From a virus (Duplodnaviria; Heunggongvirae; Uroviricota; Caudoviricetes), in IMG/VR virus record IMGVR_UViG_3300009614_000107: a stretch of 28,484 nt of DNA; one strand, 5' to 3'. The position numbers were made by a program, and so were the translations under genes. Positions 370 through 25,674 of the stretch are shown piece by piece. Numbering within the stretch: the stretch's first letter is position 1; each line of letters begins with the position of its first letter. The notes under the pieces are model-generated. The model ran no database searches. It saw only the letters and a program-made list of their open reading frames with translations, and was not told where the DNA came from.

Positions 370-1341
370 TCACTGCTGTTGGAGTGGAATTATTGTCTCA
401 AAACGCCTCATTGTATTTCGGATTGAGACAGGTGTAACATTGAAAATGTAGCCAACATCATCCTGTGTGATATTGGTGTTCTGATTGCGGTGTAAGTAAA
501 ATGATGCTGCTGAGACAACAAATGGATTCTTGCCAATCATTTCCCTTTTGACTGCTTCGAGCTTAGTGAAGTCTATGGACTTAGACATAATGTCACGTAT
601 TTCGTCTTGTGGGATTTTCTTCTCTTCTGCATACTTGAGAAGTGCATCCTTCTTAGATGTGATTACCATCTCACACGTGATTTTGCAGGATTGAACCCCA
701 GCTTCCTTGGCATCCTTGACAGCATCGTAGAGGCATCTAATCTGATCGTGTCCATCGACTTTGCTGTATCGAGTATAAACATCTTTGAACTGGAGTGGTG
801 TTTCTGAGTTTGCTGGACACTTAGAGAGCAGATAGATTAGGGCAGCTATGGTAACATGGTATGCTCTTCCACGGAAGTTGGCAAGACCGATCTTCTCACC
901 AATCTCGTGCTTTAGGAACATCTTGTCCGACTCTGAGAAGTCATAGCATATTATATCAACAACATTTGAGATGTTGTCTGTCACGTGCCTAATTCGCTTG
1001 CGCTCTCTGCTCTTTTGGCTGTACTTAGGAAGCCTTGCTTTTTGCCTATCTCTGGTTTCTGTAAGCATTCTTTCTCTAGTTGCACGAAGTTCATCGTATC
1101 GATCAAGAATTGTCTGTCGCATTCCATCTTCAAGTTCTATGATGCACTTACCATTTATGAAATGGATTTTGATGCCTGGAATCTTGTTTACTGCTGTCCT
1201 TCGATGAAGTGTCTTGGACATATATTCTGGATCGTTGCAAACGACCTCATTCATTTTCTTGTTACCACGTACAAACTTTAAGATAATCTCGTCACGTGGT
1301 GTAATTCTCGGTGGTACTACTCCTTTTGGCATATTAGTCAA
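370..1341 (-). CDS. Transcription factor B (TFB/TFIIB)-like protein, two cyclin repeats, no N-terminal Zn ribbon
   Basis: FRGRAYHVTIAALIYLLSK resembles TFB repeat 1 (RGRS...AA.LY); GKNPFVVSAASFY...ITQDDVGYIFNVTPVSIRN resembles repeat 2 and its HTH (GK.P...AAA.Y...TQ.EVA....VTEVTIRN). Confidence 0.8.
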   Translation of the reverse strand: MTNMPKGVVPPRITPRDEIILKFVRGNKKMNEVVCNDPEYMSKTLHRRTAVNKIPGIKIHFINGKCIIELEDGMRQTILDRYDELRATRERMLTETRDRQKARLPKYSQKSRERKRIRHVTDNISNVVDIICYDFSESDKMFLKHEIGEKIGLANFRGRAYHVTIAALIYLLSKCPANSETPLQFKDVYTRYSKVDGHDQIRCLYDAVKDAKEAGVQSCKITCEMVITSKKDALLKYAEEKKIPQDEIRDIMSKSIDFTKLEAVKREMIGKNPFVVSAASFYLHRNQNTNITQDDVGYIFNVTPVSIRNTMRRFETIIPLQQQ

Positions 1342-1379: not shown

Positions 1380-2270
1380 TTATTGTTTCTTACTAGTGGT
1401 CTTTCCGAACTGTGTTTTGAGAGTGTCTTTCCAGTCCTTGTTGTCCTGTTCCTTTTTCTTTTTAATACGCTTGTCGATGAGTGTGGTCCAGTTGTACATT
1501 CCATCACGGACATACTTTGGAATCTTGTACTCTTCACGGTATATTTTTGGTGGACCACCATCTATCTCGATTACAGTAGCACCGATGCTTGGTGTGATGT
1601 TTGCTGATTTCTTTGCCATAAATGGAGTAGTATATTGCCAGCAACCATTTAGGATTCCCCAGACACCATTATCATCTTGGACGGAATAGAACCTGTGCTG
1701 GTGGCCACGAATGATAATATCTGGTCCATCAATTTTGTTTTTAGCAGCGTCCTTCTCAGACTGAAGCATTTCACGAATAATGTAGGAAGATGGATTGACA
1801 ATTGATACCGAGCCACCGTGTGTAGCCTGGATTTTTACAGTGCCTCTTCCATTGTTGTTGACATCAAACTCGAAGATATCTCCCATATATTGACCACCCA
1901 TACCTTCGAGAACCCTGCGATCTATGTTTGTCGCTTGACCAAGACCACCGTGATAGCCACTGCCATTCACACCAAAAACTGTGGTCTTGTTTGTAATCAT
2001 CTTGTCAAATAGTTCAATGACCATTTGGACTTGCTCATCTGTGTCTGTGACAAGTGCGTCTACACCTAAGTTTTTGGCTTGTGAACCGTCAGCTAAGTCA
2101 CCCATTGTTAAAATATAATCGGGTCCATTGTGTCGCTTACAAAGGTCAAGCCAGCATACGTGAATCCACTTTAAAAATTCGTTATTCCTGTCACGTGGCA
2201 CGGATGATGGTGATGCTAAACCATAGATTGAGCCAATATGTGTATCGCCAATGGCGATAATTTTTACCAA
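1380..2270 (-). CDS. Calcineurin-like metallophosphoesterase
   Basis: Motifs GDTHIG, MGDLADG, GSGYH (GNH variant), ATHG, RGHQH in canonical order. Confidence 0.85.
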   Translation of the reverse strand: MVKIIAIGDTHIGSIYGLASPSSVPRDRNNEFLKWIHVCWLDLCKRHNGPDYILTMGDLADGSQAKNLGVDALVTDTDEQVQMVIELFDKMITNKTTVFGVNGSGYHGGLGQATNIDRRVLEGMGGQYMGDIFEFDVNNNGRGTVKIQATHGGSVSIVNPSSYIIREMLQSEKDAAKNKIDGPDIIIRGHQHRFYSVQDDNGVWGILNGCWQYTTPFMAKKSANITPSIGATVIEIDGGPPKIYREEYKIPKYVRDGMYNWTTLIDKRIKKKKEQDNKDWKDTLKTQFGKTTSKKQ

Positions 2271-2959: not shown

Positions 2960-3105
2960 GCTTTACTGCACTTTACTTAACTGTACTTTACACCACTGTA
3001 CTCCACTGTACTGCACTATACTATTCTGCTTTGCTTTACTTTACTATACTTGACGTAACTTCACAGAACGATACTACACTCAACTTCACTAAACTTCTCT
3101 GCTTT
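2960..3105 (-). ncRNA. Two tandem 73-bp pentamer-repeat guide-like RNA units (putative VIPR-like guides A and B)
   Basis: Each unit on the minus strand is AAAGCAGA-(NN-AGT)x12-AAAGC (A 2960-3032, B 3033-3105). The array starts within the stop codon of the RAMP gene. Confidence 0.8.
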
Positions 3106-3670
3106 AAGACTTCTTTTTAACTGGCTCGAATTTGGCAACCTCAAACCTACCGTATTTTGGGCGATAAGTTCCGATGCCCTTCTCCTTGCCAGCTATCTCA
3201 AGAAGTTCCTTCAATGTTTCACCCTCTATCAAACTTTCGTCTGCTACTCTAAGGATGAAATCGAACTCCCAATCATTCCAAATTGGTCGAGCAATCGGTA
3301 CTCGGCCACGAGTTGCAGGAATTACTCCAAGACGAACATCCGTCTGGAAATCCTTCCCATTTTTGAACGGGATCTCGATTGGGAGAACTACAACGTTGGT
3401 TTTCATCATATCCTTGTAGGTTTTCTTTCCTCTGCCTGGGATAGTTTTGGAACTGCCAACATTGATCAGTGCGCCTTCGATATGATCTGAAGGCTGGTAA
3501 ATATCTCCTTTTACATTTTTATAGAGGCACTTTTGAACCTCTTCTGCTGGGTCAAAAACAGAACCACGAACCTTCTTTTTTGTGATGCTTAAAGCATCAA
3601 GAGGGTATCGGTTGTGCATAAGGGGAACGACTCCCCTTATCTTTACTGCATAGTCTAACAAATTATACAC
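3104..3670 (-). CDS. Stand-alone RAMP/Cas7-like protein (putative Vipr-like guide-binding effector)
   Basis: N-terminal strand VKIRGVVPLMH, central IYQPSDHIEGAL (cf. RAMP PYIPGSSLKGAL), C-terminal Gly-rich loop GIGTYRPKYGRF; flanked on both sides by pentamer arrays; no other cas genes in the window. Confidence 0.75.
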   Translation of the reverse strand: MYNLLDYAVKIRGVVPLMHNRYPLDALSITKKKVRGSVFDPAEEVQKCLYKNVKGDIYQPSDHIEGALINVGSSKTIPGRGKKTYKDMMKTNVVVLPIEIPFKNGKDFQTDVRLGVIPATRGRVPIARPIWNDWEFDFILRVADESLIEGETLKELLEIAGKEKGIGTYRPKYGRFEVAKFEPVKKKS

Positions 3671-3720: not shown

Positions 3721-3822
3721 GGTGGCTTCAAGTTTTGTTCAGCCACCCTTTACTTAACTTTACTTTACAGGACTTTACTCTACTCGACATTACTTAACAG
3801 CACATTACTATACTTGAGCAAG
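3721..3822 (-). ncRNA. Stand-alone pentamer-repeat guide-like RNA C with own promoter and 3' hairpin
   Basis: Minus strand TTGCT-(NN-WGT)x13 (pentamers 3752-3816)-AAAGG, then stem GGTGGCT/AGCCACC (3721-3727 and 3741-3747); promoter AATATTTATAAA at 3844-3855. 5' end estimated. Confidence 0.8.
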
Positions 3823-3928: not shown

Positions 3929-4015
3929 CTACTTTTTCGCCTTTCGCCTATTATACGACTTGACATGAACGACCTTATTTTTTTGGTGTCGTGTGTACGA
4001 TTTTACGTGTGGCAT
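3929..4015 (-). CDS. 28-aa basic peptide, putative virion DNA-binding protein (missed by ORF track)
   Basis: MPHVKSYTRHQKNKVVHVKSYNRRKAKK*; internal HVKSY repeat; same AGGAGGGTAG RBS (4023-4032) as the capsid-like genes. Confidence 0.75.
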   Translation of the reverse strand: MPHVKSYTRHQKNKVVHVKSYNRRKAKK

Positions 4016-4100: not shown

Positions 4101-4307
4101 TTAAATCTTGTCAGATGACCTTGCAGCAACTGATATACCTACAAGTAAAGCTATAAGTACCAATATGCTGGCCATTACGTTGGCAGCCGATGTGAGGTTA
4201 GTTGAAGCAGCAGCCATAAATCCTAATGTAGCGATTAGAAGTACTACAGCTATAGCTACGACATATCCCAATATTGGTCGAGTTGTATCGAGCAGACCTT
4301 CTCCCAT
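4101..4307 (-). CDS. Putative major capsid protein of spindle-shaped virus type, copy 2
   Basis: 68 aa, two long hydrophobic helices joined by a short polar loop with an NLT sequon; RBS AGGAGGGTAG at 4315-4324. Confidence 0.65.
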   Translation of the reverse strand: MGEGLLDTTRPILGYVVAIAVVLLIATLGFMAAASTNLTSAANVMASILVLIALLVGISVAARSSDKI

Positions 4308-4410
4308 TTTTTAACTACCCTCCTAACGACTGTAAGGTGATGCGTTGTTGCCTCACCTGGGAACGATGTCTGGAGTTCTTCACTCCAGAGAGATTAATGG
4401 CTTGACAGGC

Positions 4411-4617
4411 TTAAACCTTGTCTGCGCTGCGTGCAGCGACAGAGATCCCTATGAGTAGGGCAATCAATACCAAGATGCTCGCCATTACGTTGGCAGCAGA
4501 GGTAAGGTTTGCACTTGTTGCAGCCATAAAGCCTAGGGTAGCGATTAGCAGTACCACGGCAATTGCCACAACATAACCCAATATGGGACGTGTAGTGTCA
4601 AGTAGACCTTCACCCAA
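4411..4617 (-). CDS. Putative major capsid protein of spindle-shaped virus type, copy 1
   Basis: 63/68 aa identical to 4101-4307; TTG start; RBS AGGAGGGTAG at 4625-4634; TTTATAT box near 4698-4704. Confidence 0.65.
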   Translation of the reverse strand: MGEGLLDTTRPILGYVVAIAVVLLIATLGFMAATSANLTSAANVMASILVLIALLIGISVAARSADKV

Positions 4618-20202: not shown

Positions 20203-21060
20203 ATGGGTGTTAGACAAGGCGGTTGGGCTCCACGTCAGCCTCTATTGAGTAAAGACGTTTTGAACGCATTGAAGGAAGATCTCATTCCATTGTGGGATGA
20301 GGGATTGAGTGCAGAAGAAATAGCAGACAGACTGGAGTTCGGTAAGTACCCATATGAAGATTTGAAAACTTATCACGTTTGGTACTATAGAAAACAATTT
20401 GGTTGTCAGAAAAGAAAGGGTGGAATTGAGAAAGGAAAGCCACGTTATAATGTCAAGCCTGATGTTATTGAACCACCAACCATTCAGGAAATTGAAGCCA
20501 AATTGAATGAAGTCTATCCACTATTGAAAAACAATGCTGGTGCAACTGACCTCAACACATTGATGGTTAGAGCATACATCTGGTTGCACAGATACAGTCC
20601 ACTGAGAAAAAGTGAGATATATGAGAGGGAACTAGGTGACTTCTACATTGATGAGAAAGCAAAAATACTAACACTTCAGAACTTTATCAGGAAAAAGAAA
20701 TTAAAGGGTAAAGCAAAAGAAGCACCTTTCCTTATCCCCTTGGATTATCCACACGTGATGGATGAAATTGTCACCTATCTTGTAAGAAGGATTGAACGTA
20801 CACAGGATTCGAGTGCCAAGGCATTTCCAATGTCGGGTTGGGTTGCCTGGAACAGAATGAAGAAAGCCTTCCCAGATATGTACCCACACTACTGGAGATT
20901 CAAATATATCACAGAGTCTGCCAGTGACCCAAACGTCCCTATTGAAGATTTACTAGCAGATACTGATCTAAATTTACTGACTTTGAGGCGTTATATGATG
21001 ACGGGTGAAAGACAACGTTTGGCTTCATTACAGAGAAGGAAACAGAGAGAACTTGTTTAA
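20203..21060 (+). CDS. Tyrosine recombinase/integrase with N-terminal HTH
   Basis: Catalytic pattern R (PLRKSEI), K, HxxR (PHYWR), Y (TLRRY); N-terminal GLSAEEIADRL; GGTGA RBS. Confidence 0.8.
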   Translation: MGVRQGGWAPRQPLLSKDVLNALKEDLIPLWDEGLSAEEIADRLEFGKYPYEDLKTYHVWYYRKQFGCQKRKGGIEKGKPRYNVKPDVIEPPTIQEIEAKLNEVYPLLKNNAGATDLNTLMVRAYIWLHRYSPLRKSEIYERELGDFYIDEKAKILTLQNFIRKKKLKGKAKEAPFLIPLDYPHVMDEIVTYLVRRIERTQDSSAKAFPMSGWVAWNRMKKAFPDMYPHYWRFKYITESASDPNVPIEDLLADTDLNLLTLRRYMMTGERQRLASLQRRKQRELV

Positions 21061-21140
21061 AGTTCTCTTGTTTCGCTTTAGTTCACACCACTGTACTATA
21101 CTATACTTAACTTTACTCGACTAAACAGTACTAAAGCAAT
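21039..21140 (-). ncRNA. Orphan pentamer-repeat guide-like RNA D with own promoter and 3' hairpin
   Basis: Minus strand TTGCT-(NN-AGT-type)x11 (21080-21134)-AAAGC; hairpin 21039-21053 / 21061-21074 spanning the recombinase stop; promoter AATATTTATAA at 21161-21171. Confidence 0.8.
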
Positions 21141-21160
21141 ATTGAAAATGCTCTAGTGAG

Positions 21161-21171
21161 TTATAAATATT
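21161..21171 (-). promoter_or_regulatory. AATATTTATAA promoter of guide-like RNA D
   Basis: Same motif about 22 nt upstream of the TTGCT leader. Confidence 0.75.
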
Positions 21172-25589: not shown

Positions 25590-25674
25590 TGGCGGTGAGA
25601 GTGGGGATCGAACCCACGAACACCGAAGTGTACTGGTTTAGCGAACCAGCCCCTTACCGCTAGGGAATCTCACC
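25590..25674 (-). tRNA. tRNA-Ser(GCT) with encoded CCA
   Basis: Acceptor GGTGAGA/TCTCACC, discriminator G, CCA; anticodon stem CTGGT/ACCAG with loop TC-GCT-AA; long variable arm ACAC-TTCG-GTGT; T arm GTGGG-TTCGATC-CCCAC. Confidence 0.9.

Follow-up and report, generated by a model that had tools for sequence, protein, structure and literature searches.

By sequence comparison, one of the four guide tracts in the window (the whole stretch of 28,484 nucleotides analysed here), designated guide D, fits the recombinases of related elements better than it fits the recombinase gene behind which it lies. From the anatomy, code, homology and ranking of non-self above self computed here, we consider it probable that guide D acts in trans, after loading by Vipr, to silence the recombinases of related elements at their catalytic-Tyr codons, with the linked allele partly or wholly spared.

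VIPR systems consist of Vipr and vrRNA, the type example being that of Escherichia phage SUSP1 (bioRxiv 10.64898/2026.04.26.720920 and.720927). VIPR itself, solo guides, the targeting of recombinases, self scores below non-self scores and WGT scaffolds are already known from the 2026 preprints. Not found in the VIPR preprints are a detached, kin-directed guide that sits on a vipr-positive element at the stop codon of a gene of its own target family, and a guide tail hairpin formed from an inverted copy of the end of the adjacent gene.

Table 1. Positions of the guides, effector and recombinase features in the window.
Feature	Position	Strand	Evidence
Xer-like tyrosine recombinase gene, 285 aa	20203-21060	+	Foldseek, VIA-align, archaeal XerA profile
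Near-cognate site of guide D, codons 259-269, 18/22; Tyr264 codon at 20992-20994	20977-21009	+	
Guide D 3' tail hairpin, 15 bp, one bulge	21039-21074	-	fold z -5.8
Guide D repeat tract: 11 variable NN units and a constant last unit, AGY-type scaffold	21075-21134	-	
TTGCT leader, common to guides D and C	21135-21139	-	sequence comparison
Guide D promoter motif (putative), archaeal TATA-like	21161-21170	-	14 copies against 0.18 expected
vipr effector gene, 188 aa, RAMP fold	3104-3670	-	profile match to SUSP1 Vipr 36pp, E 1.2e-17; Cas7/Csm3-like fold
Guide C, upstream of vipr, own promoter and hairpin	3752-3816	-	tract scan, fold, motif count
Two-guide array downstream of vipr	2960-3097	-	tract scan

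The guide D cassette and its effector

When both strands of the window were scanned for pentamer tracts, four were found: guide D and three around the gene at 3104-3670. The tract of guide D (21134-21075, minus strand) has the pair series, register and coordinates originally predicted for it, and comprises 12 pentamers in which a variable pair is followed by AGT, TGT, ACT or AGC, mostly AGT (an NGY triplet in 11, ACT in one). Because the 12th unit, AA followed by AGC or AGG, is constant and closes all four guides of the window, guide D is read as 11 variable pairs.

The motif ATATTTATAA, at 21170-21161, recurs 14 times in the window (expectation, 0.18) and also precedes vipr and guide C, standing 28 nt ahead of each of these and 26 nt ahead of the first pair of guide D. 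It is a putative promoter, and no ORF of at least 60 aa in the ORF list begins on the minus strand directly behind it. The structured tail of guide D is locus-specific: its hairpin arm at 21060-21074 repeats, in inverted form, the last codons of the recombinase gene (21039-21054), and the tails of the other guides are not homologous to it. The original prediction of a guide with its own promoter, a leader shared with guide C and a 3' hairpin (fold z -5.8), lying 17.4 kb from the effector, is borne out on each of these points, with the promoter function remaining putative. Each of the 10 element copies fetched has the cassette unchanged, and the gene-guide junction is no mis-assembly, since contigs of an independent peat run cross it without difference.

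The window system classifies as VIPR by the published definition, because the family profile of its 188-aa Cas7-like protein matches SUSP1 Vipr; a tblastn search matched 128 phage records, and no CRISPR-like repeat family is present in the window. The likeness to SUSP1 VIPR extends to a small stand-alone RAMP homologue, guides of 11-14 pentamers with a constant triplet and a variable NN pair, a structured 3' tail, a one-nucleotide skip at the wobble position, the lack of a CRISPR array and a mobile-element context. The differences are a scaffold of AGY/WGT rather than GGY, Thr in place of Asp177, an element that is probably archaeal-hosted and has TATA-type promoters, and one guide 17 kb from vipr. 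Additionally, no described vap gene was identified here, the recurring neighbour being a calcineurin-like phosphoesterase gene, and guide D has an 82% self match, of which the published clades have no counterpart. Published vrRNAs contain 9-16 pentamers with GGY/NN or a related consensus (bioRxiv 10.64898/2026.04.26.720920); guide D, with 12 units, falls within this range, and its consensus is of the related kind (AGY/WGT), not GGY.

Degenerate WGT/NN scaffolds beside Vipr-fold proteins, as in the window, have been published (bioRxiv 10.64898/2026.10.21.760802), but targets, detached guides and a link between scaffold and effector residue are not described in the accessible part of that preprint. 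Asp177 of SUSP1 Vipr contacts the first G of GGY (bioRxiv 10.64898/2026.04.26.720920), and the G-loop of the window Vipr has Thr168 in its place. In a comparison of the window and 30 related loci, units beginning with G make up 57-100% at 22 loci with Asp, 0-19% at six loci with Thr, all of one clade, and 5% and 50% at two loci with Ala. Guide D has the same scaffold as the three vipr-linked guides (79% A-first) and, since A-first units accompany Thr or Ala at the Asp177 position, it carries the scaffold of its own effector. Such a link between Asp or Thr/Ala and the first scaffold base predicts orthogonal Vipr-guide pairs.

SUSP1 VIPR immobilises satellite F5 via the active-site codons of its excision recombinase, using vrRNA4, and solo vrRNAs with self scores below non-self scores were published in the same preprint (bioRxiv 10.64898/2026.10.15.759431). 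Guide D resembles these guides in standing alone, in reading recombinase active-site codons in codon register and in scoring lower on self than on non-self. The vrRNA4 target, however, is the serine-type recombinase of a satellite, whereas that of guide D is the orthologous tyrosine recombinase of its kin; and solo vrRNAs sit on vipr-null elements, whereas the element of guide D has vipr and the guide both abuts and overlaps the element's allele of the targeted gene. By the 20-kb rule guide D is detached rather than solo, vipr being 17.4 kb off on the same contig.

The recombinase and the ranking of its orthologues

The gene at 20203-21060 encodes a tyrosine recombinase, and the guide footprint covers its catalytic Tyr; both assignments follow from invariant residues, a Cre/Xer fold and a match to a XerA profile. 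Six residues (R135, E138, K165, H229, R232 and Y264) are invariant in an alignment of 63 homologues, and the modelled protein resembles Cre/Xer structures (Foldseek E 8e-5; VIA-align Z 14.5, rmsd 3.8, 181 aligned). The family profile matches archaeal XerA 4a8e (E 1.8e-8) with the invariant Y264 on the C-terminal Tyr motif, so the claim that guide D reads the catalytic-Tyr region stands. The closest solved sequence relatives are XerA and XerD. As in XerA, XerD and Cre, the fold and the R-K-H-R-Y catalytic residues are present, but the window protein has Leu for the usual His/Trp before the Tyr, and Pfam gives no match for it. Scans of GTDB and IMG/VR returned no relatives of this recombinase.

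The target had been taken to be an integrase. The gene is indeed an Xer-like tyrosine recombinase, but dimer resolution would suit it as well as integration or excision, given its kinship with XerA and XerD, the ~197-kb contigs into which the element assembles in several data sets, and the lack of a host junction in any fetched locus. No tRNA adjoins the gene.

With one nucleotide skipped after each pair, the best match of guide D in the window scores 18/22 at 20977-21008 (plus strand), which reproduces the count first claimed for the adjacent recombinase; the runner-up scores 15. Skips of 0 and 2 gave no more than 15 matches in the window, and a skip of 3 recovered nothing but the guide itself. 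The skipped base falls on the third codon position, so that a skip of one alone matches, with the wobble position passed over, and orthologues reach 21/22 by the same rule. Because guide D is mRNA-sense, it can pair with the template strand only. Over its six tail-side units guide D pairs with self without a mismatch; the mismatches number four in all. Window-wide, a score of at least 18 was reached by 12 of 3000 shuffles of pair order and 17 of 3000 shuffles of bases; within about 600 nt of guide D, it was reached by four of 20000 shuffles.

Guide D scores 21/22 on the orthologues in L015, L016 and L063 (one lineage) and L017, evidence that amounts to two lineages (P0053/P0003 and P0002) whose genes are just 69% and 76% identical to the window recombinase. 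The peptide in these genes, LTLRKYMMTGE, is the reading of guide D itself. Lower scores are found in L050 (20), L064 (19), self and L018-L020 (18) and the sister element L011-L014 (17), and none of 1000 shuffles scored above 18 in the pooled relatives. Across seven orthologues, footprint identity at codon positions 1, 2 and 3 is 83%, 95% and 50%, and the footprint ranks 7th of 275 windows for conservation at positions 1 and 2. The suggested pattern search in homologous recombinases was thus successful as far as 21/22 in two lineages, but yielded no perfect match: no 22/22 target occurs among the fetched orthologues, the exact pattern has no match in viral_contigs, and the pattern relaxed at one base has none in genome_contigs. 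All 21/22 sites miss one and the same base, at a position where the distant orthologue in L064 has a CG-type codon.

Proposed silencing of kin and competing readings

Under the reading we favour, guide D would be transcribed separately as a vrRNA of about 100 nt, and the Vipr of the same element, whose gene is 17 kb off, would take it up in trans. With its AGY triplets gripped by Vipr subunits, the guide would read the template strand of the recombinase gene through its NN pairs, passing over third codon positions. The preprints are the source for filament assembly, binding of DNA and silencing; by analogy, the complex would occupy the DNA at the catalytic-Tyr codons, which are among the best conserved of the gene, and prevent transcription. 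The allele aimed at would be that of the Lys263 type, carried by related elements that compete for a shared host. A cassette sitting at the stop codon of the element's Arg263 allele, which has four mismatches, would be co-inherited with a less sensitive allele, so that self may be spared, while the rival would lose dimer resolution or integration/excision.

The original prediction of a trans-acting guide against a related element holds in that guide D is a detached guide of a Vipr system and scores 21/22 on relatives against 18/22 on self, but a sensitive co-resident was not encountered. The only co-resident relative found in the same sample is of the sister type (a loose end with 29/30 identity to L011), whose 17/22 lies below self; no target-site variants occur among contigs placed at 80% likeness, a filter that rivals at 69-76% mostly escape. 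This low-scoring sister, the lack of a 22/22 target in the collections searched, the limitation of 21/22 scores to two lineages and the perfect self pairing over six tail-side units all count against the silencing of kin.

The last of these points speaks for autoregulation, as a sole or second role, in which weak binding of the element's own gene via the tail-side units would damp its expression as long as Vipr is present. VIPR assembly proceeds from the tail (VIPR preprints), and for SUSP1 vrRNA4 a footprint of six units has been reported. Moreover, the self score of 18/22 (82%) exceeds the 80% cut-off for natural targets (bioRxiv 10.64898/2026.04.26.720920), and the cassette lies 66 nt from the site, a closeness that guide C shares, at about 115 nt from its 21/26 site. 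We nevertheless regard this as unlikely: a self-directed guide should fit self best, yet distant relatives fit better; trans action through Vipr gives adjacency no reason; and self matches of at least 80% are absent from the clades described in that preprint. Somewhat less likely again is that the guide is a relic, which once fitted an ancestral allele of its own gene or came from a rival, the gene then escaping by Leu/Arg swaps and a change of Lys to Arg. Lys263 is widespread in outgroups, and two of the three mismatched self codons are silent first-position swaps (Leu and Arg families), the third being a two-base change of Lys to Arg (CGN). However, Lys and Arg vary across the whole recombinase family, the sister has the same Arg-Arg codons and one extra mismatch in spite of having no linked guide, and footprint identity between self and relatives (19-20/22) is not below the gene-wide identity at positions 1 and 2 (80-91%). 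Self escape by special silent swaps was no better supported than ordinary divergence.

The convergent promoter, the overlap of the last 22 nt of the predicted RNA with the gene end, and a hairpin that scores as terminator-like on both strands would all suit a role in cis on the recombinase mRNA, as antisense or as terminator, with the pentamers incidental. We think this very improbable, since the hairpin shuts in the antisense part, the NN series, being mRNA-sense, is unable to pair with the mRNA, and the scaffold and the gapped match, both far beyond chance, do not require such a role to explain them. A chance match deserves hardly any credence: about 0.5% of shuffled guides do reach 18/22 somewhere in the window, but orthologues from other samples score 21/22 in codon register at the same site, where no shuffle in 1000 exceeds 18, and these orthologue matches already refute it.

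The history of the cassette can be followed by comparison with the sister element, which is syntenic and has vipr and about eight guides, but no cassette at the recombinase site; similarity between the two ends at 21061, one base past the stop codon. No guide follows the recombinase gene in any fetched relative, and the inverted hairpin arm is absent behind the gene in all of them. Three of the four self mismatches are common to the cassette-less sister, and the arm follows the window version at both positions that differ in the sister, which suggests that the cassette arrived behind an allele already different from the guide. The cassette may instead have been lost in the sister; the protein tree does not reliably root the close clade (stem length 1.3). 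On the minus strand the cassette reads as a collinear inverted gene end, with codons 259-269 in skip code and then a plain copy of the last codons. It is conceivable, if rather doubtful, that guides are written or put in place at the target gene itself and that guide and resistant allele then spread among kin as a selfish allele-exclusion unit; such spread might resemble that of homing elements, but through silencing. Both the placing of guide beside allele and a tail of local origin are relevant to how vrRNAs are acquired.

The silencing of kin would extend VIPR recombinase targeting from a contest of phage and satellite in E. coli to competition among related large, probably archaeal elements. 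Mismatch tolerance and self-discrimination were left open by the VIPR preprints, and could be measured in this PAM-less system on the natural targets of a single site, whose scores run through 17, 18, 19, 20 and 21 of 22.

Other guides, neighbouring genes and the host

The guide at 2960-3019 (minus strand), whose pairs spell the HsdR/ResIII helicase Walker A motif, matches an HsdR-type helicase gene in a Bacteroidales MAG (L062:5625-5656) exactly and in frame at 22/22, and serves as a positive control for the one-nucleotide-skip code. The match suggests that VIPR is used here for anti-defence, with a restriction enzyme of the host as the target, although the Bacteroidales MAG is unlikely to be the host. 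Guide C matches an adjacent 28-aa basic ORF (window 3929-4015, minus strand) at 21/26; the sister orthologue of this ORF (L022:3694-3790) has Pro where guide C reads CC and self has Ala, and scores 17/26. No perfect target of guide C was found, and its pattern has no match in viral_contigs. The guides of the sister and of other AGY-type loci have no strong match in any fetched locus. Guide-target adjacency is no rule in this clade, since the sister guide behind the phosphoesterase gene has no target nearby. Guides at L047:10580-11149 have 19-21 pentamers, beyond the published 9-16, and tracts in L023, L036 and L037 have 22-24 units.

A gene for a calcineurin-like phosphoesterase lies near vipr in four AGY-type loci (window 1380-2270, minus strand; L022:7582-8496; L047:9131-9985; L049:64-939). 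It is a candidate accessory gene, outside the vap functions listed in the preprint, and were its product a nuclease, the outcome of VIPR could exceed silencing. An AGY-type vipr in L047 is preceded, 6 kb upstream, by a cas1 gene (L047:2839-3987; TIGR00287 match above cut-off), and L047:1-6000 contains no CRISPR array. A VIPR-Cas1 coupling has been hypothesised in the VIPR preprint; chance proximity or a casposon may also account for the arrangement.

The element is large and probably archaeal. TFB-like proteins are encoded in these elements (window 370-1341, minus strand; L022:8589-9539; L050; L064), that of the window having a TFIIB repeat and no Zn-ribbon match. A feature-similar Atlas cluster, the TFB genes and the TATA-type promoters provide a lead, and only a lead, to Bathyarchaeota as host. 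An Rfam scan returned nothing but a tRNA; a tRNA-Ser (GCT) at 25593-25674 (minus strand) is also found in the sister (L013). Two near-identical hydrophobic proteins of 68 aa are encoded in tandem at 4101-4617 (minus strand; 74% DNA identity) and are possibly virion or pilin-like subunits.
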